From contig OZ253462.1 in assembly GCA_965261395.1 (NCBI GenBank), positions 960,001 to 1,024,000 on the forward strand: a DNA stretch of 64,000 bases. Direction: 5' to 3'. Below the pieces are notes generated by a model. It ran no database searches, was not told where the DNA came from, and saw only the letters and a program-made list of their open reading frames with translations. The stretch is from Candidatus Latescibacterota bacterium. Its GTDB lineage: Bacteria > Latescibacterota > UBA2968 > UBA8231. Position numbers and translations under genes: made by a program. Positions 1,938 through 54,064 of this stretch are shown piece by piece; positions within the stretch are counted from its first letter, which is position 1; the number at the start of each line of letters is the position of its first letter.

Positions 1938-4878
1938 ACGCGCCTGCCGGCCCTTAGCGATCGCATTGTCGCTTTCGCTCGCGTCTGCGGCGTTTGCCGA
2001 CGATGTCGATTGGCCGTACTACGGGGCCGATCAGGGCGGCACCCGCTACACCCCCGCCGACCAGATCAACCGCGACAACTTCGATCAATTGCGCGTGGTT
2101 TGGCGCTACCGGCCCCGCGACGTACAGATCTACGAGACGGCGAGAGCTAACCGAAGCCAGGAACGGGGTCGCGGTCGGGGCGGTTGGGGGCGCGGTGGTC
2201 TCCGCTTTGACAACAACCGAGGCACGCCGGTCGCCATTAACGGCGTGCTTTACTATGGCTCGCCCTACAACATCCTCTCGGCCATTGACGGCCAAAGCGG
2301 CGAGGAATTATGGGCGTTCGACCCGGAGTCTTGGCAGGCCAGTTCCGCTTTCGTGGGCAATTCGCGCGGGGTGAGCTATTGGACCGATGGCGAGGTGGAG
2401 CGGGTGTTTATCGCGACATCAACCGCCCATCTGTACTCCATAGACGCCAAGACCGGCCTCCCCGACTCGACTTTTGGCGAGGGCGGGCGCGTCGATTTGG
2501 GAGCCTTACTGCGCCGGCCGTTGAGCGAACGGGAGCGCAGGGGCTACGGAGTCTCGGCCCCACCCGTGGTGTGCCGGGGCGTGGTCGCCGTTGGCTCGGC
2601 GATTGTGGATGTGCGTGGCCGACCGCCAGCTGAGTACATACCGCCGGGTGATGTGCAGGCCTTTGACGCGCGTACCGGCGAGAAAGTATGGGAATTCCAC
2701 ACGATCCCGCAGGAAGGCGAGTACGGCAACGAGACGTGGGGGTACGAGGCGTGGAAGACCTACGGCGCGGCCAATGTGTGGGCTACGATGACGGCCGACG
2801 ACGAGTTGGGCTATCTCTACCTGCCAGTGAGTACGGCCAGCCACGACTACTACGGCGGCGAGCGCCCCGGCGACAACCTGTTCAGCGAGTCGGTGGTCTG
2901 TCTAAAGGCCGAGACCGGCGAGCGGGTTTGGCACTATCAGCTCGTCCACCACGGCCTGTGGGACTACGACCCGCCGGTCGCTCCCCTGCTGTTGGACGTG
3001 GTCGTCGATGGCCAAGAGCGCAAGGTCGTCGCTCAGCTAACCAAACAGGCCTTTTGCTTTGTCTTTGACCGCATAACCGGCGAGCCGATCTGGCCAATCG
3101 AGGAAAAGTCGGTGCCCCAATCTCAAGTGCCAGGTGAAAAGACCTCGCCGACGCAGCCGTTTCCGACCAAACCAGCGGCCTTCGAGCGCCAAGGCATCAG
3201 TGAAGACGACCTGATTGACTTCACGCCTGAGTTGCGCGAAGAAGCCGAGGCCATTCTCGCCGAGTACGACTACGGTCCGCTCTACGCGCCGCCGACCGAG
3301 AAGGGCGTTTTGTCGGTTCCGGGCCAAGTCGGCGGTGCCGACTGGGCTGGGGGCGCGGCGGATCCGCGCACGGGCGTGCTGTATGTGCCGTCGCACATGA
3401 TCATCACCAACGTGGAACTGCGGCCGGTGCGCGACCTAGATGCGTATTCGGCATTTTCTGCCAGCGCCGGACGGCAGATCCTCGGCCCGCGCGGTCTGCC
3501 GCTGGTCAAGCCCCCGTACGGCAGCATCACGGCGATTGACCTGAATAGCGGCGAGCATATATGGCGGACGACGGTGGGCAAAGGTCCGGTCAATCACCCG
3601 GCACTCAAGGGCCTCGACCTGCCAGATATGGGCTGGAACAACCGCACCTTTATCTTGGCCACGCCGAATCTCCTGTTGGCTACTTCCGATGACCCGCACG
3701 ACCTAGCCGACGCTGGCAGGGACTACTTTGTCGATCGCGACGCATACCTGCGGGCGTACGAACTGGCGTCGGGCGCGGGAATCGGCCGCGTTGAATTGCC
3801 CAGCAACGCCTATGGCGCGCCGATGAGCTATACGGCCGGCGGTCGCCAATACGTGGTCGTGCCGCTGGGCAACGGAGAGCGCCCGCCCGAATTGGTCGCC
3901 TTGGCCATTCCGCACGAAGACGAGGAACTGCCGCCCCAGGGCCGCGACCGCAGCGACGCCGGCCACAAAGCCTTTTACGAGGCGGTAGAAGCTATCGACG
4001 CCGGCGACAGCGAGACGCTACAGAAACTACTCGCGGAGTACTCCGAGCTAGCGACGGCGCGCGGCTATTTCGACGAGTACTACGAATACCCCCATTTTCG
4101 CGGGGCCACGCTCTTGCACCACCTCGCCGGCGAGCCGCAACGAGTGCCGCTGCCCGAAAACGCGGTTGAACTAGCCGCGGCCCTGATCTCAGCCGGTGCC
4201 GACCCCAACGCCGCCACGTACGACTCGATCAGCGTGTTGGATATGTTCATAGAAAGCGACCAGCTCGAATGGGCCGAGAGCAAGCCCGAAATGATCCAAC
4301 TCCTAGTGACCAACGGCGTGGACGTGAACCGCAACCGGGGCCAAATTTTATGGAACGCGCTGAGAGAGAGGGATATAGAGCTGGCGCGCATGTTGGTCGC
4401 CGAGGGGGCGACCGTGGATTTGCGATTTGCCGCTGGTGTCAACCGCGTTGATCTGATGGCCGAGTTCTTCGACTCCGAGGGCCAGCTAAAAGAGGGGATC
4501 GGCCACCTCTATCACCCGGATCCTGACATGGTGCTGACCGCCGAGCAGATTATGGTGGAAGCACTCAATCTTGCGGCCTATAGCGGCGCGCTGGAAGCGG
4601 CGGAATTTTTGCTGGATCGCGGCGCGGACGTCAACGGGTATGCCCGTGGGTTTAGCCGGTACGACCGCGGCAGTACGCCCCTACATAAAACCGTCATGGC
4701 CGACCAGCTAGAGATCGCCCAGTTGCTCTTGGCGCGAGGCGCTGACCCCCTGTTGGGAGATTGGCGCTTTGAGATCACGCCTTATGAGTGGTCCAGCTAC
4801 ATGAATACCTCTAAGGCCCTCGACGAGCTGCTCAAAGAGCACCATGAGGCCGCCTTAGAGCGGGCGGACGCGGACTAG
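1930..4878 (+). CDS. Secreted PQQ-dependent dehydrogenase fused to C-terminal ankyrin repeats
   Basis: Signal peptide (ASAAFA|DD); DWPYYGADQGGTRYTP, GTPVAINGVLY, DYYGGERPGDNLFSES, HHGLWDYDPP; ankyrin C-terminus; start overlaps the upstream paralog's stop. Confidence 0.88.
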   Translation: MNKRACRPLAIALSLSLASAAFADDVDWPYYGADQGGTRYTPADQINRDNFDQLRVVWRYRPRDVQIYETARANRSQERGRGRGGWGRGGLRFDNNRGTPVAINGVLYYGSPYNILSAIDGQSGEELWAFDPESWQASSAFVGNSRGVSYWTDGEVERVFIATSTAHLYSIDAKTGLPDSTFGEGGRVDLGALLRRPLSERERRGYGVSAPPVVCRGVVAVGSAIVDVRGRPPAEYIPPGDVQAFDARTGEKVWEFHTIPQEGEYGNETWGYEAWKTYGAANVWATMTADDELGYLYLPVSTASHDYYGGERPGDNLFSESVVCLKAETGERVWHYQLVHHGLWDYDPPVAPLLLDVVVDGQERKVVAQLTKQAFCFVFDRITGEPIWPIEEKSVPQSQVPGEKTSPTQPFPTKPAAFERQGISEDDLIDFTPELREEAEAILAEYDYGPLYAPPTEKGVLSVPGQVGGADWAGGAADPRTGVLYVPSHMIITNVELRPVRDLDAYSAFSASAGRQILGPRGLPLVKPPYGSITAIDLNSGEHIWRTTVGKGPVNHPALKGLDLPDMGWNNRTFILATPNLLLATSDDPHDLADAGRDYFVDRDAYLRAYELASGAGIGRVELPSNAYGAPMSYTAGGRQYVVVPLGNGERPPELVALAIPHEDEELPPQGRDRSDAGHKAFYEAVEAIDAGDSETLQKLLAEYSELATARGYFDEYYEYPHFRGATLLHHLAGEPQRVPLPENAVELAAALISAGADPNAATYDSISVLDMFIESDQLEWAESKPEMIQLLVTNGVDVNRNRGQILWNALRERDIELARMLVAEGATVDLRFAAGVNRVDLMAEFFDSEGQLKEGIGHLYHPDPDMVLTAEQIMVEALNLAAYSGALEAAEFLLDRGADVNGYARGFSRYDRGSTPLHKTVMADQLEIAQLLLARGADPLLGDWRFEITPYEWSSYMNTSKALDELLKEHHEAALERADAD

Positions 4879-48828: not shown

Positions 48829-50229
48829 ATGAACAAGACAGAAAATAGCACGCCCAATATCGTCCTGATCGTCACCGACCAGCAGCGCTGGGACACGCTC
48901 GGCTGCTTGGGCTACGACCACGTAATCACTCCGCACATTGACCGCTTGGCCGCCCGGGGCGTAGCGTTCAGTCGCGCCTTTGTGCAAGGGGCCGTTTGCG
49001 GCCCGTCGCGCAATAGCATCGTCTCGGGCCAGTACGTCCACACCCACGGCATTGACCGCAACGAGGCGTGGCTGACGCCCGAACAGCCCAACTGGATCGA
49101 GCAGCTCAAGGACGGCGGCTACCACACAGTCAACATCGGCAAAATGCACACCGCGCCCATCCGCCTGCCGTGCGGCTTCCGCCACCGCACGGTCGTCGAA
49201 AACAAGAACTATCGGCAGGGACACCACGGCCCAGACCCGGACGACTACGACTTGTACCTGATGCAATTCGGGCTTAGACGACCGGCGCTGACCTACTACC
49301 GCGACGTGCCCAATTGGCCGGATTATTTGGGCGCGGCCGTGTGGCCGCACGACGAAGCCTTGTTTATCGACAACTGCATTGGGCGCTGGAGCGTGGAGGC
49401 TATTCGCACGCACGACTTTGCCAAGCCGCTTTTCCTGTGGAGTGGTTTTGCCGGGCCGCACGATCCCTTTGACGCGCCCGAATCTTCGCTGGCGCGCTAC
49501 GAAGGCGTGGACATTCCCGACCCCGTGGGGATCCCCAACGAACTGGACACCAAGCCGCCGCCACAGCGCCAAGCCATGAAGGGCATGGACGGCAAACACG
49601 CACCCGCGGCGATCTGGTGGAGCCGAGCGACCCCGGAGCGCATTCGCCGCATGCGCCGGCACTACTACGCCAACATCACCGCCATTGACGATTGGGTCGG
49701 CTCGATGGTTGCGGCCATTGACGAGCGGGGCGAGCTGGACAACACGATTTTTGTATTTACCTCGGACCACGGCGACTGCCTCGGCGACCATCACCAAGTC
49801 TATAAGTTCTCGTCCCACTACGACTCAGTGGCGCGAGTGCCGCTGGTTTTTGCCGGTCCCAGAGTCGAGCGGCTGGGGGTGCGCGATCCGCTAGTAGAGT
49901 TGATTGATCTAGGCCCGACCCTGTTGGAAATGGCGGGGTTGGGGCCGTTGGCCGAGGCGGCGGGGCTTTCTTTGGGGCCGCTGTTGCACGGGGAAGAGGT
50001 CGTATTGCACGAGACCGTGTTTTCCGAGTACGGCCCGCGCATCATGGCGCGAACCGAGGCGTGGAAATTGGTTTTTTACCCGGGGGAACCCTACGGGGAG
50101 TTGTATCATTTAGAAGAGGACCTGGACGAACTGTACAACCTGTACGACGATCCGGCTCATGCGGGAGCGCGGGGAGCGATGGTGGAGCGGATGATGGATT
50201 GGTACGGCAAGACGCGGATGCAGCGCTAG
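48829..50229 (+). CDS. Formylglycine-dependent sulfatase
   Basis: PNIVLIVTDQQR, CGPSR (CxPxR), GKMH, PHDP, SDHG, ELYHL...ELYNL. Confidence 0.93.
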   Translation: MNKTENSTPNIVLIVTDQQRWDTLGCLGYDHVITPHIDRLAARGVAFSRAFVQGAVCGPSRNSIVSGQYVHTHGIDRNEAWLTPEQPNWIEQLKDGGYHTVNIGKMHTAPIRLPCGFRHRTVVENKNYRQGHHGPDPDDYDLYLMQFGLRRPALTYYRDVPNWPDYLGAAVWPHDEALFIDNCIGRWSVEAIRTHDFAKPLFLWSGFAGPHDPFDAPESSLARYEGVDIPDPVGIPNELDTKPPPQRQAMKGMDGKHAPAAIWWSRATPERIRRMRRHYYANITAIDDWVGSMVAAIDERGELDNTIFVFTSDHGDCLGDHHQVYKFSSHYDSVARVPLVFAGPRVERLGVRDPLVELIDLGPTLLEMAGLGPLAEAAGLSLGPLLHGEEVVLHETVFSEYGPRIMARTEAWKLVFYPGEPYGELYHLEEDLDELYNLYDDPAHAGARGAMVERMMDWYGKTRMQR

Positions 50230-50267
50230 CCGAGAAGATAGACGCTGATTAGAGAAAGGACGCGAGG

Positions 50268-51722
50268 TTGGTGATTCCCATCGACATGCCAGACGCGGTC
50301 AAGCGCGCAGACGGCAGTGCGCGCTTTGCGTACGTCACTTTTGTGATGATGAACGACAGCTACGTGCCCGGTGCGCTCCTGCTGGCCTACGGACTGCGCC
50401 GGCAGTGGACCGAGGCGGATATAGTCTGCTTGGTCACACCCGAAGTCACGGCCGACGCCCGCGACGCGCTCGCAGTGCTCTACGATCACGTGGTTGAGGT
50501 CGAGACCGTGTGCGTGCCACACAAGCGCAGCCACCAGCGGCGGGACCGCCCCTTTTGGTTTACCCGGCAGAATGCCTTCCGCCTCGGAGCCGACGGGGAC
50601 TTGGGCCTATCCTACGAGAAGATCGTGGTCCTCGACGCCGATGTGCTGCCGATGAAGTGGTTCGATCACCTCTTTACGCTCGACGCGCCTTCCGGGGTCT
50701 TAAACGAGAGCAAGGAGCACTGCATTGAGGAGGACGAGCAGGGCCAGTACATCGTCCCGCAAAACTTGCACGTCGGCACCGAGTGGAGGTGGCACCGCCT
50801 GTACGCGGCTTGTCCCCACGGCCAAGCCATTCCCCGAGAAATTACCGATCGGGTCGCAGCCGACCCCGGCAACAACACCGGCATCAGCGGTTCGCTCTAC
50901 GTGTGGGAACCTTCTATGCGGGAGTTTCTCGACATTTGCGAGACGATTGCCAAGCCTCCGGTGGTCGAATACGTCACGGACCTATTCGACTACCCGGACA
51001 TGCAGTACATGACGATGCGCTATTCCGGCAGTTGGAAGAGCATCGACTTGCGCTTTATAGGCTTCAAGGGCTACCCAGGGCTAAAGGCGCTCTTCGGCAC
51101 CCACTACGCGGGCTTCAAGCCTTGGTATTTCAAGCAGCCGCAACTGCTCAAGCGCTATAGTCAGTACGAGGATTTCGCATACTGGTATCGGGAGTACTTG
51201 GCCATGGTGTGGGTGGATTATCCCGATTTGCGGAAAATCAAACGGCTTGCGAGACTCGACGAGGATATCCGGGCACTGACCGGCATCCAAATCGGCGAGA
51301 TGCAAGACAGACCCTCGGAGAAAAACAATCCGCGCCAGCGAAAGGAGCACACTGTGAACATACACGTGGGTAATTTGGCAAAGACGACCAAAAAGGAGGC
51401 GCTGATCGAGCTCTTCCAACCGTATGGGAAGGTCGTGGCCGCCACCATCGCCCGAGACAAGAAGAACGGTGCCTCGCGCGGCTTCGGTTACGTGGAGATG
51501 GCTACCCGGCACGAAGGCGAAGAGGCCATCGCCCATCTCAACGACAAGGAGTTCGAGGGGCAGAAGTTGCACCTCAGCGAAGCGCACGAGAGCAAGGGCA
51601 AGGGCGGGCGCGGGTCGGGCAAGGGCGACCGCGCTGACCAGCAGCACAGTAGTTTTTTCTCTGCCCGTGGCGACCAGCACAACGCGGGAAATATGCGGCG
51701 GAGCGGACGGCGGGGTTCCTAG
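50268..51722 (+). CDS. Glycogenin-like GT8 glycosyltransferase fused in frame to an RRM RNA-binding domain with a Gly/Arg-rich tail
   Basis: AYVT...DSYVPGAL, YEKIVVLDAD, HYAGFKPW; then RNP2 IHVGNL and RNP1 RGFGYVEM. Confidence 0.8.
   Translation: MVIPIDMPDAVKRADGSARFAYVTFVMMNDSYVPGALLLAYGLRRQWTEADIVCLVTPEVTADARDALAVLYDHVVEVETVCVPHKRSHQRRDRPFWFTRQNAFRLGADGDLGLSYEKIVVLDADVLPMKWFDHLFTLDAPSGVLNESKEHCIEEDEQGQYIVPQNLHVGTEWRWHRLYAACPHGQAIPREITDRVAADPGNNTGISGSLYVWEPSMREFLDICETIAKPPVVEYVTDLFDYPDMQYMTMRYSGSWKSIDLRFIGFKGYPGLKALFGTHYAGFKPWYFKQPQLLKRYSQYEDFAYWYREYLAMVWVDYPDLRKIKRLARLDEDIRALTGIQIGEMQDRPSEKNNPRQRKEHTVNIHVGNLAKTTKKEALIELFQPYGKVVAATIARDKKNGASRGFGYVEMATRHEGEEAIAHLNDKEFEGQKLHLSEAHESKGKGGRGSGKGDRADQQHSSFFSARGDQHNAGNMRRSGRRGS
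51341..51356 (+). promoter_or_regulatory. Internal Shine-Dalgarno and in-frame GTG start for a stand-alone 122-aa RRM protein (51354-51722)
   Basis: AAAGGAG-cacact-GTG giving (M)NIHVGNL, the usual N-terminus of bacterial RRM proteins. Confidence 0.65.
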
Positions 51723-54064
51723 TCTGGGCGATCATAAAGCAGCAACCGCGCGAGGATGGGGTCGTGGTCGCTGGCTTGGTTGGGGAACTCGGTGTTGACG
51801 TGGACATGGTCGAACTCGGGCTGGAGCGCGATCAGAGCCGAGCTGACCAGCAGGTGATCGAGCTGCTGGGAAATTCCCTGAAAGTTATAGGAATAGGCCA
51901 AATCTCCATCCATCGCGTCGCCGAGATTGAAGAGGAGCGGCGGAGTGCCGGCGAGCGTTTGCAGGACATCGCCCGGCGGCGGTTGTACTGGGTCGAGCGG
52001 AAACGGGCACTCGTTGAAATCCCCGAGCACGACGATGTTGGCGTTGGGATCGGCGGCCAGCAGCTCGGCGACGAGGTCGTGGATGAACGCGGCCTGCGCG
52101 AGGCGCTTGGCAAGCCCGCCATTCGTCGGCGGCTGGATTCGACCGAAGAGGGGTGGACTGCCAGACTTGGACGAGAAGTGGCAGTTGATCACCGTCAGCT
52201 TGGTTCCCTTGAAATCGAACGCGGCCTTGAGCGGTTTGCGGCTGTTGCGGAAGGCATCGTCGCCATCGGTGTCTTCAATGCGTTCCACCGAACCAATCAG
52301 GGCCACCCGACCGGGCTGGTAGAGGTACGCAACGCGGATATTGCCGCCCGGCTGGCCGCCGTCGGCCCCATCTGGGGGCGCGACATCCGCGTACTCATAC
52401 CTCGGACCACTGGCCGCAGCAATGGCGGCAATGAGCGTTTGCGCCGTCTGGTCCGCTGAAGTGGTGCCGTCGTTGACCGCGCCGCTGTTGTCCTGCACTT
52501 CCTGCAGGGCCAGCACGTCTGGTGCGCCCAAGCGATGGACAATTTGGTCGGCAATGGCCGCGAATTGACCGTCCGCTAGGTCCGCACTTTTGTCGTCGTC
52601 ATTGGGATCGAGATTGAACACGTTGAAACTGCCCACCGTCAGATGCTGGGCCGTGCCGACGAGGGTGGTCATTTCCGGCACCAAGCCAGCGCTCTCCACC
52701 ACCGGCTCGGTCAGGACGAGCACCTCAAAGTTGCCAAAGCGGTAGCTAACCGGGCCGCGCACATAGCCGAGTGCATCGCCGACCTGCGCGGCCGGCATGG
52801 CACCGGGTAGCAGACTGTCGTCGAGCTGGATGCGCTGCGGATGCAGGGTCTCCGACGTCAGATTCAACCCGCCCCGTGAGTTGAGCTGCTGCCTCGCACC
52901 AGCATCGGCGAGGACGACAATCTCGCCAAAGCGGTTGGTCGGACTAATGGCGACCGCGTCCTGCACCTCCACGAGCATGCCTTCTAGCGACTCGTAGAAG
53001 TCAATGCCGTCTTCCGCTGGGTCGAAAATTGCGAAGTTGTCGTTGTCGATCACCCTCGTCGGCGGTCGGCGGCCGGCCGCGCCAATGGCCACTGGAGCCG
53101 GTATGGGGTTGCCGGTTGACACGATCTGAATGCGGTCGGGCTGCGAGAATTCGGTTATCGACAGATTGTTGGTAGCCGCGCCGCCGGGAATGTATTCGAT
53201 CACAGTGCCGGTCACTTGTACCTCGTCGCCGATGGAGACCTTCGGGGCATTTTTGGTAAAGACGAACATCCCGTCGGATGTGCGCTCATCGCCGTCTCCG
53301 GTTGCGTCTTGGAAGTAGAAGCCATTGCGAGAGACAGCCGTTACAATGCCCCGCGTCGAGACTTGCTCGCCCTCGTGCGGCGAGGTGTGGCCAGCCCCTT
53401 GGATTTCGCAGATTCTGAGTACCGGGGGAGACGCCAGAGGGGCCGCGCTTGGGGTGTTGGCGACGATTGCCGAGTCCGTGCCGAAGACTTGGTCGGCATT
53501 TACAGCACCAAAGCTGGCCCGGGTCGGTACGCTCCAGAAAAAATCACCCGGCGCGGTGCCAGTGCCCTTGAGTTGCAGAGAAAATTCCACCGGCGTGGAA
53601 TTGGATTCGGCAACCCTGATGTCGGTGCTGGTCATGCCGTCAGCGGGTCCACCTGCTGCCGTGAAGGTCCCTTCGTAACTGAGGAACTGGACGACCTTGC
53701 CGTTGGCGACTAGGGCGATCCCGTCGGGGGCACCGTTCTGGATGCTTTTTGCAAAGCCGAAGGCGATCGTTCCGAACCCGTTGGCCTGATCCGGTATGAT
53801 CCCGCTTAAGTGCTTAGTACGGTATAAGGTGCCATTCCTCCCATTGTAGAGTGCCAGTGCCCAGCCGGAAAGATTGGTCCCGGCTGGCCCAGCGACCTCA
53901 ATGGCTTCGCCGGTATCCTTGCCGATGTTGTCGTAGTGAATTTCGTTGATGAATGCAGTTTGCCCCAGCAACGGCCCAGCCCCAATCGAGAGTAGCGAGG
54001 CGCAAAAAGCGGATCGGCGAAGCCAGCCGTGTTGGGGCTTGGAGCGTGTGTCGAACATGGTCAA
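51719..54064 (-). CDS. Extracellular nuclease, ExeM/NucH-like (lamin-tail domain, OB fold, EEP domain)
   Basis: FINEIHYDN; EIQG...GIVTAV...GFYFQD...SDG; FNVFNL, LQE, NCHFSSK, GDFN, LDH, SDHDP. Confidence 0.88.
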   Translation of the reverse strand: MTMFDTRSKPQHGWLRRSAFCASLLSIGAGPLLGQTAFINEIHYDNIGKDTGEAIEVAGPAGTNLSGWALALYNGRNGTLYRTKHLSGIIPDQANGFGTIAFGFAKSIQNGAPDGIALVANGKVVQFLSYEGTFTAAGGPADGMTSTDIRVAESNSTPVEFSLQLKGTGTAPGDFFWSVPTRASFGAVNADQVFGTDSAIVANTPSAAPLASPPVLRICEIQGAGHTSPHEGEQVSTRGIVTAVSRNGFYFQDATGDGDERTSDGMFVFTKNAPKVSIGDEVQVTGTVIEYIPGGAATNNLSITEFSQPDRIQIVSTGNPIPAPVAIGAAGRRPPTRVIDNDNFAIFDPAEDGIDFYESLEGMLVEVQDAVAISPTNRFGEIVVLADAGARQQLNSRGGLNLTSETLHPQRIQLDDSLLPGAMPAAQVGDALGYVRGPVSYRFGNFEVLVLTEPVVESAGLVPEMTTLVGTAQHLTVGSFNVFNLDPNDDDKSADLADGQFAAIADQIVHRLGAPDVLALQEVQDNSGAVNDGTTSADQTAQTLIAAIAAASGPRYEYADVAPPDGADGGQPGGNIRVAYLYQPGRVALIGSVERIEDTDGDDAFRNSRKPLKAAFDFKGTKLTVINCHFSSKSGSPPLFGRIQPPTNGGLAKRLAQAAFIHDLVAELLAADPNANIVVLGDFNECPFPLDPVQPPPGDVLQTLAGTPPLLFNLGDAMDGDLAYSYNFQGISQQLDHLLVSSALIALQPEFDHVHVNTEFPNQASDHDPILARLLLYDRPD

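Follow-up and report, generated by a model that had tools for sequence, protein, structure and literature searches.

How does a glycosyltransferase come to share one reading frame with an RNA-binding protein, and would such a frame yield one protein or two? The question is raised by a 64,000-nucleotide stretch of a Candidatus Latescibacterota genome (genome G000, G000:C1:960001-1024000, contig OZ253462.1; referred to here as the window). In this stretch, a single open reading frame (ORF) on the forward strand (50268..51722, 484 amino acids) carries a glycogenin-like domain of glycosyltransferase family 8 (GT8) and an RNA recognition motif (RRM) domain without an intervening stop. Comparison with related genomes indicates that the fusion is genuine, inherited, young and lineage-specific. 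The reading favoured here, with a probability of roughly 60% for the statement as a whole, is a tolerated fusion with two products, the RRM and its Arg/Gly tail taking the place of a polycationic tail that the enzyme has lost.

An open junction shared by three genomes

Residue numbers are counted with the TTG at 50268 as residue 1. Pfam Glyco_transf_8 matches residues 25-150, in the N-terminal half only, with 27.3 bits against a cut-off of 24.3, and Pfam RRM_1 matches residues 366-435 with 61 bits against a cut-off of 20.7. The NCBIfam model Rbp_regulator (NF058537) reaches 72 bits, under its cut-off of 100. The original prediction had pointed to the missing stop between the domains, to the DAD and HYAGFKPW segments of the enzyme and to an AAAGGAG ahead of an in-frame GTG at 51354, and had proposed products of 484 and 122 amino acids. 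These features are all present: DAD occupies residues 123-125 (50634-50642) and HYAGFKPW residues 279-286 (51102-51125), and 122 codons run from GTG 51354 to the stop. The shorter product keeps its proposed length and the longer does not: the TTG at 50268 is TTC or TTT in the other two fused genomes and the GTG at 50271 aligns with the ATG or GTG starts of all homologues, so the long product probably begins at GTG 50271 and has 483 amino acids.

The genus is represented by 31 species-level genomes, 29 of which match the protein; genome completeness is 77% and 87% in the other two. Full-length, stop-free fusions are found in three of the 31, namely G000, G022 (98% amino acid identity) and G004 (93%). 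Both flanks differ in G004, where the upstream sulfatase is found in low-identity fragments (L003, ~1084-1450) and a HAD hydrolase lies downstream, so the gene was kept while its surroundings changed. A database cluster represented by P0001 (478 amino acids, 98% identical) carries both Pfam domains; the cluster has 288 member sequences, with the architecture taken from the P0001 sequence. In P0002, a single sequence with 96% identity, the junction is the same, with a frameshift further on, within the RRM part. Of the 24 listed sequencing runs, 20 contain the stretch in full or in part, and 13 cover half or more of its sampled words; these runs belong to 10 studies, and six are RNA on record. 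Contigs of four runs cross 51288-51356 with no indels reported, and the four comprise one unlabelled, DNA-like run and three metatranscriptome libraries (two studies), from three studies altogether.

Such a frame could arise if a stop had been missed, or an indel introduced, in a single long-read assembly, and the frameshift in P0002 is a reminder that indel errors or variants do happen in such assemblies. However, the open junction is common to three separate species-level assemblies at a synonymous divergence (dS) of up to 0.37, the contigs described above span it cleanly, and the DNA of the ancestral stop and spacer is itself gone, not just misread. Because three genomes and independent contigs share the open junction, the fusion is not an assembly artefact; this explanation is already refuted, with next to no probability left to it. 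The original prediction was to fall if relatives had a stop and a separate RRM gene and the fusion were an error of a single genome. Relatives do have that stop and that gene, and the single-genome error is contradicted by the three genomes and the contigs, and by the purifying selection on the GT8 part.

Origin by deletion and the retained start

Both parts of the fusion are separate, adjacent genes in five genomes of the genus (G014, G015, G016, G017 and G023). There, a GT8 of 388-392 amino acids ends with a ~50-residue Lys/Arg-rich tail and a TGA stop, and a spacer of ~90-250 nt leads to an RRM gene with an ATG start behind GAAAGGA. The same layout is present in all seven metagenome loci whose downstream sequence is long enough to show it, which belong to the same lineage and have a GT8 of up to 393 amino acids; the scan that found them, with P0011, was meant for the nearest outgroup and gave loci of this lineage only. 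The remaining 24 matched genomes, referred to as the GTG clade, all have AAAGGAG, six bases and GTG. In an rpoB tree covering 30 genomes (all but G017, which gave no rpoB match), the ATG-type genomes and the GTG clade are separated with 100% support, and G000, G022 and G004 form one clade (100%), whose sister G006 (83%) has no GT8.

Alignment of the junction shows what was removed. Linker codons 51318-51341 (EKNNPRQR) align with the final codons of the ancestral GT8 (GKKPRQRG, followed by the stop), and across the GTG clade the codons of the basic tail are gone, as are the stop and the whole spacer up to the Shine-Dalgarno (SD) sequence of the RRM gene. The nearest relatives outside the genus (P0011 and P0012) consist of GT8 alone, with a tail. 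The fused sequences nest within unfused ones in a GT8 tree, obtained by a quick IQ-TREE search with Shimodaira-Hasegawa-like approximate likelihood ratio test (SH-aLRT) support, in which the genus clade and the fused clade each receive 100. Since the fused GT8s nest among unfused ones and the outgroup relatives stand alone with a tail, the fusion is derived, and on this comparison it was made by deletion of tail codons, stop and spacer. A deletion that joined two neighbours was one of the two origins considered in the original prediction, and the separate genes of the relatives, together with the missing tail, stop and spacer, support it. A sequence tried as a second fusion, P0153 (156 amino acids, query residues 259-373), proved to be a fragment of an ancestral-type GT8 with its basic tail.

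In 21 sister genomes the orthologous RRM gene stands alone, and its sole start consists of the same SD, spacer and GTG that lie inside the fused frame. As a motif, AAAGGAG-N5-8-GTG is found once in the window, where 0.45 occurrences are expected, and 33 of 100 shuffles contain at least one match; it is not beyond chance by itself and takes its weight from homology. No variation exists among the 24 GTG-clade genomes in the SD or at positions -5, -4 and -1, and positions -3 and -2 each differ in one of the 24. Over the 17 leader-retaining genomes of this clade (14 of them without GT8), mean pairwise identity of the leader from -25 to -1 is 0.934, compared with 0.935 at codon positions 1 and 2 of the RRM and 0.764 at third positions; the leader RNA has no significant fold (z +0.42). 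These comparisons identify the internal start as a constrained, functional initiation region that is unaltered in the fused genomes. The 122-amino-acid RRM protein is thus very likely, on comparative grounds, to be made from the fused mRNA, and the two products that were at first considered possible are strongly supported by conservation of the start in the 21 stand-alone orthologues.

Selection on the coding parts can be compared between fused and unfused genes. Among the three fused genomes, the ratio of non-synonymous to synonymous divergence (dN/dS) of the GT8 core is 0.057-0.068 at dS 0.15-0.37, and in pairs with unfused, ATG-type genomes it is 0.05-0.10. Because these ratios are low and like those of unfused genomes, the GT8 part of the fusion is, on this evidence, a working gene under strong purifying selection and is not decaying. 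The RRM domain has a dN/dS of 0-0.036 among fused genomes (~0.035 in the two G004 pairs), and the Arg/Gly tail one of 0.08-0.40. One further RRM_1 match, a weaker one, lies elsewhere in the genome of the window.

The following sequence of events would account for these observations. In the ancestor of the clade, deletions removed the Lys/Arg-rich tail codons of GT8 and its stop, together with the spacer that led to the SD of the RRM gene, and the GT8 frame now continues through ~22 linker codons into the RRM gene. From one mRNA, ribosomes starting at GTG 50271 would make a 483-amino-acid protein composed of GT8, linker, RRM and Arg/Gly tail, and ribosomes recruited at the retained AAAGGAG/GTG (51341-51356) would make the ordinary 122-amino-acid RRM protein; both are probably produced. 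On the long form, the RRM and Arg/Gly tail occupy exactly the place of the ancestral tail and would serve as a polyanion- or RNA-binding appendage, and in this role they probably replace the lost tail functionally.

Two proteoforms from one gene are known from the classical cases of ClpB, IF2, CheA and CcmM. Genome-wide examples of in-frame internal initiation in bacteria have been reported (10.1101/520783). The present gene resembles them in having a strong SD and an in-frame start within the ORF, with long and short proteins sharing their C-terminus; it differs in that the internal start is the relic of a once independent gene, the history of which is still recorded in the sister genomes. 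The stand-alone bacterial RRM-1 proteins, such as Bacteroides RbpA/B/C and cyanobacterial Rbp, are similar, each having one RRM of ~80 amino acids, a short Gly/Arg-rich tail and its own start (PMC11697453; PMC13370968). Here, in contrast, the RRM gene doubles as the 3' portion of a longer ORF, and the Rbp_regulator score is below cut-off. RRM_1 matches were also obtained in the control genomes of Synechococcus and Bacteroides. RtmR of Vibrio fischeri is another bacterial RRM that does not stand alone, but the partner is a membrane-embedded region rather than an enzyme, and the words "glycosyltransferase" and "architecture" are absent from its description (PMC12265689).

The features of the locus are listed in Table 1. 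The linker from ~51309 onward is also the conserved leader of the RRM gene. The RRM domain contains the segments IHVGNL and RGFGYVEM, which we take to be RNP2 and RNP1, respectively. At its 3' end, the stop of the fused ORF overlaps that of the convergent gene, which is kept downstream in most GTG-clade genomes. The upstream sulfatase has an internal deletion in G020 (L019). The GAAAGGA at 50254..50260 is kept wherever deletion spared the GT8 5' untranslated region (50225-50265). The 3' half of GT8 has a GC content of 0.55-0.58 against ~0.62, with no clear foreign signature in base composition, and no N-terminal hydrophobic segment was seen by eye in the sequence. A scan of 49900-52000 for sigma-70-type promoters gave no match, a terminator scan between GT8 and RRM found none, and promoter and terminator scans of the ancestral spacers in L005 and L007 returned nothing; all of these scans are uninformative for this lineage.

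Table 1. Features of the fused gene and its surroundings (positions in the window).
Feature	Position	Strand	Remarks
Fused ORF (GT8, linker, RRM, tail)	50271..51722	+	483 codons and stop; full-length and stop-free in G000, G022 and G004
SD-like GAAAGGA 5' of GT8 start	50254..50260	+	Recognised by sequence; putative function
Glycogenin-like GT8 (GT-A) catalytic domain with helical C-terminal extension	50271..51287	+	Residues 2-340; Pfam, AlphaFold2, Foldseek
Linker, disordered	51288..51353	+	Residues 341-362 (22 residues); AlphaFold2 pLDDT <50 at 345-359
Internal initiation site AAAGGAG-N6-GTG	51341..51356	+	SD 51341-51347, GTG 51354-51356; putative use in the fused mRNA
RRM domain	51354..51581	+	Residues 363-438; Pfam RRM_1 61-63 bits; beta-alpha-beta-beta-alpha-beta fold (AlphaFold2)
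Arg/Gly-rich C-terminal tail, disordered, and TAG stop	51582..51722	+	Residues 439-484; AlphaFold2 pLDDT <50 at 441-484
Sulfatase, upstream neighbour outside the fusion (synteny anchor)	48829..50229	+	Pfam Sulfatase, 150.7 bits; conserved upstream across the GTG clade
Exo_endo_phos protein with weak LTD match, convergent neighbour (synteny anchor)	51719..54064	-	Pfam
CopG-type antitoxin relic, last codons and stop	50230..50252	+	Aligns with the 3' end of the antitoxin ORF in G001, G041, G013 and G043

The enzyme, its family and its neighbours

The key residues of the two motifs are conserved: D123, D125, H279, G282, K284, P285 and W286 are invariant in 22 homologues, and the DAD and His segments align with the DAD and HFLG..KPW segments of glycogenin. 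A family profile searched against the PDB returned 20 distinct sequences at E <= 0.01, 19 of them glycogenin-1 or -2 (E ~1e-14) and one a Skp1 alpha-galactosyltransferase. The AlphaFold2 model, built on 37 aligned sequences, has a mean predicted local distance difference test score (pLDDT) of 85.6 and a predicted template modelling (TM) score of 0.71; it is confident at residues 1-340 (pLDDT mostly >90) and 363-438 and disordered at 345-359 and 441-484. In a Foldseek search of the PDB, glycogenin comes first (E ~2e-14, TM 0.70-0.78 by target length), followed by the UGGT catalytic domain, Skp1 alpha-galactosyltransferase (4e-9) and LgtC (6e-8). A PF01501 match above cut-off, a DxD with a downstream His and the GT-A fold place the domain in GT8, and many homologues carry the PF01501 label. 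By its motifs and predicted fold it is probably a metal- and UDP-sugar-dependent GT-A enzyme, and probably active.

The likeness to glycogenin-1/2 extends to the GT-A fold and to the conserved DxD and H-x-x-G-x-K-P-W segments. However, identity is 16-20%, the bacterial domain has added insertions and a long helical C-terminal extension, and the glycogen-synthase-binding tail is not seen, the C-terminus being taken up by linker and RRM; the GT8 part is not classed as glycogenin proper. The segment G268-Y269-P270 (51072-51080) is invariant in 22 aligned homologues and lies ten residues before His279. By analogy with the acceptor tyrosine of glycogenin, Y269 is a candidate self-glycosylation site; the HMMER alignment to glycogenin leaves out the loop with the acceptor tyrosine.

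Predicted viral structures match better than those in the PDB, with E-values of 5e-38 for a Catovirus glycosyltransferase, 1.4e-34 for one of Klosneuvirus and 2e-20 for a mimivirus "p13-like" protein. The GT8s of giant viruses (Klosneuvirus, Catovirus, Edafosvirus and the mimivirus protein) are the closest structural relatives found, the Klosneuvirus KNV1 enzyme having a TM of 0.78, a root-mean-square deviation of 2.9 and 32% identity; they differ in having no RRM and in carrying long C-terminal extensions without a Pfam match. Proteins of 840-860 amino acids with 36-40% identity, found in an exhaustive search, look like members of the giant-virus group. The original prediction held that glycogenin-type GT8s are best known from eukaryotes and large DNA viruses, which is fair for characterised proteins, but the bacterial family is widespread, with a relative encoded in 227 of 599 pattern-matched stretches of species-representative genomes. 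C-terminal extensions of at least 15 amino acids occur in 22 of the 118 GT8-only homologues with a complete core, and 16 of these 22, from several lineages, are strongly basic.

Within the searched collections, the pairing of GT8 with an RRM is unique to this lineage. A domain-architecture search had been proposed with the original prediction, and it leaves P0001 as the sole protein with both domains among the matches listed: 137 proteins passed a word-indexed search, and 120 were listed. The combination is in none of the best 150 of 21,074 matches of the exhaustive search, Pfam finds no RRM in 12 long or odd GT8 relatives (700-860 amino acids), and a search with the RRM part for proteins of 266-847 amino acids returned P0001 alone. 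The nearest ESM Atlas clusters, which serve as leads only, are GT8-only (scores 0.84-0.86) and none has an RRM; the architecture was not found in the open-access papers searched. At the level of gene neighbours, the best 80 of the 227 loci were kept, and an RRM lies in the fetched flanks of seven, all from this genus and partly from genomes already counted.

Elsewhere in the family, 57 loci with 114 flanking ORFs were surveyed for neighbours, six loci also being scanned with Rfam. The neighbours are of mixed kinds, some linked to sugar metabolism and others to translation or RNA. In the first group, a GalE-like epimerase is packed directly behind GT8 in 7-8 loci and a GH1 gene lies directly in front in ~8; sugar kinases are further neighbours, as are Bmp/PnrA binding proteins in ~13 loci. 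In the second, a divergent EF-G paralogue lies upstream in seven loci, and convergent 5S/23S rRNA lies downstream in six of six scanned; RuvX/YqgF is near GT8 in seven loci, YebC/TACO1 in five and rRNA-methyltransferase-like genes in three. The EF-G and rRNA genes are not operon partners of GT8, and the survey is read as a weak hint, not counted as evidence, that the family works near RNA. The arrangement with GT8 between the divergent EF-G paralogue and the convergent end of a 5S/23S operon is seen in L053, L062, L073, L079, L089 and L103 (~4050-4170 onward), which are other lineages labelled Latescibacterota, with the 5S start ~50 nt after the GT8 stop. A 122-amino-acid "ORF" downstream of GT8 in other lineages was discarded as 23S rRNA sequence. 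In the Delongbacteria-type loci L082, L083, L084, L088, L093, L095 and L100, RuvX/YqgF, GT8 and a GalE-like NAD-dependent epimerase follow one another on one strand with gaps of ~10-30 nt, and this cluster hints at a UDP-hexose 4-epimer as sugar donor.

Gene loss, competing explanations and meaning

The locus has a history of loss. The RRM gene is kept in all 21 genomes without GT8 and stands alone in 26 of the 29 matched genomes of the genus. In many of the GT8-less genomes, a remnant of the GT8 3' region still continues across a linker of the fusion type, so the junction is older than the GT8 losses. The 3' breakpoints of the deletions lie at ~51193-8, 51226, 51293, 51309, 51319-25 and 51334. 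The 5' untranslated region and start of GT8 (50225-50265) are kept in G001, G013, G041 and G043, where nearly the whole ORF is gone; another deletion class is without 50225-50265 and keeps codons ~310 to 362, and G044 retains an additional GT8 fragment (50472-50495). These breakpoint classes fit neither the rpoB tree nor a local-flank tree, and a tree-based count of independent GT8 losses was dropped for this reason. The pattern suggests homologous recombination between species at the locus.

Some further observations were made on the same genomes. The local-flank tree (RRM and downstream flank, 17 genomes) conflicts with the rpoB tree; for example, it groups G009 with G013. Beside the normal rpoB, most genomes of the genus have a second rpoB-like frame of ~1050 amino acids (G000:C1:719772-720803, minus strand, outside the window) that matches positions ~444-1144 of the rpoB model only. 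Immediately upstream of GT8, the antitoxin relic marks an earlier deletion, as judged by alignment. An intact BrnT toxin/CopG antitoxin pair occupies the position of the relic in G001, and alignment places one there in G041, G013 and G043 as well; Pfam BrnT_toxin and CopG_antitoxin both match the intact pair in L017 (914-1463). A contig from an RNA library represents a strain in which the end of the antitoxin gene immediately precedes a complete 5' end of GT8. The codon CAG 51336-51338 (Q357), six codons before the GTG of the RRM, is TAG in 5 of the 21 GT8-less genomes (G001, G008, G012, G043 and G046, scattered on the rpoB tree), and G011 has an in-frame TAA a few codons before this position; none of the three fused genomes has a stop there. 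Recurrent mutation, recombination or selection against read-in from upstream could each have caused the stops at Q357.

Several observations weigh against a two-product fusion with a functional replacement of the tail. At least two to three non-nested GT8 deletions have occurred, as a structural minimum from the breakpoints. Because 21 sister genomes lost GT8 and kept the RRM, the enzyme, and hence the fusion, is by this comparison dispensable in most of the clade. The linker has a dN/dS of ~0.35 in the two G004 pairs (five non-synonymous and three synonymous changes). Within the three fused genomes, conservation of the SD is inseparable from coding constraint, the case for two products is wholly comparative, and the contigs from RNA libraries prove neither transcription nor a single transcript. 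Outside the genus, an RRM is near GT8 in 0 of 73 loci (tblastn, E <= 1), and the sugar-metabolism neighbours of the family fit a sugar or small-molecule acceptor unlinked to RNA.

Many of these points would be expected if the fusion were a tolerated accident, with the RRM of the long form a passenger and the frame persisting because GT8 is useful and the appendage is not selected against. Adjacency and fusion occur in one genus only, sister genomes repeatedly lost GT8 and always kept the RRM, the linker is disordered and evolves fast, and the locus is a hot spot of deletion and recombination with a toxin-antitoxin relic. Such a pure passenger is nonetheless second to the favoured reading and rather unlikely, as the lost basic tail is conserved in the nearest GT8s and recurs in the family, where loss without replacement might matter, and selection on GT8 is as strong in fused as in unfused genomes. 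The opposite possibility, that the RRM, and earlier the polycationic tail, brings GT8 to RNA, ribosomes or an RNA-bound protein acceptor, draws on the recurrence of basic or Arg-Gly tails in the family, on its neighbours linked to translation or RNA (EF-G, rRNA, RuvX/YqgF, YebC/TACO1 and rRNA methyltransferase-like genes) and on the adjacency of GT8 and RRM in 8 of 8 GT8-bearing genomes of the genus. It is improbable, given that the EF-G genes diverge from GT8, the rRNA genes converge on it, and further neighbours point to sugar metabolism; moreover, the genus-specific adjacency, absent from the 73 loci elsewhere, and the repeated loss of GT8 with the RRM kept in 21 genomes argue against obligatory functional coupling. 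A complex prediction for the GT8 domain with the RRM protein scored 0.01, which is no answer and is used neither way for binding.

It has also been considered whether the RRM protein, through its Arg/Gly/Ser-rich tail or a Tyr, could be the tethered target of the enzyme, loosely like the self-glycosylating glycogenin. In this genus, GT8 is never found without the RRM gene directly beside it, and the nearest characterised relatives, glycogenin and Skp1 alpha-galactosyltransferase, act on proteins or protein-linked glycans. The RRM is, however, preserved unchanged (dN/dS ~0.035) in the 21 genomes that have no GT8, and the family elsewhere has no RRM neighbour, which makes an enzyme-substrate fusion very improbable. 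The tolerated two-product fusion, with the RRM and Arg/Gly tail in the place of the lost tail, is thus retained as the preferred explanation. A broader idea, that the whole bacterial and giant-virus family of glycogenin-like GT8s acts on RNA-associated targets, is improbable. Under that idea, ribosomal or translation-factor proteins or RNA may be the targets and the polycationic or Arg-Gly tails may be the targeting device; if it were true, the GT8-RRM protein would be the clearest natural instance and a tractable bacterial entry to the glycosylation of RNA or ribonucleoproteins.

A downstream gene that keeps its own start after fusion is a known route to two proteins from one gene. It is rare that separate genes, their fusion and a later stage, in which the upstream part is gone and the start region is intact, can all be seen within one genus. 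For annotation the locus carries a warning, since pipelines would call the long ORF only and miss the conserved short RRM protein. If the RRM does bring the enzyme to RNA or ribonucleoproteins, the fusion would be a simple bacterial model for the glycosylation of RNA-bound targets; if not, it would be a clean, datable case of a tolerated fusion in which the gained appendage resembles the lost tail.

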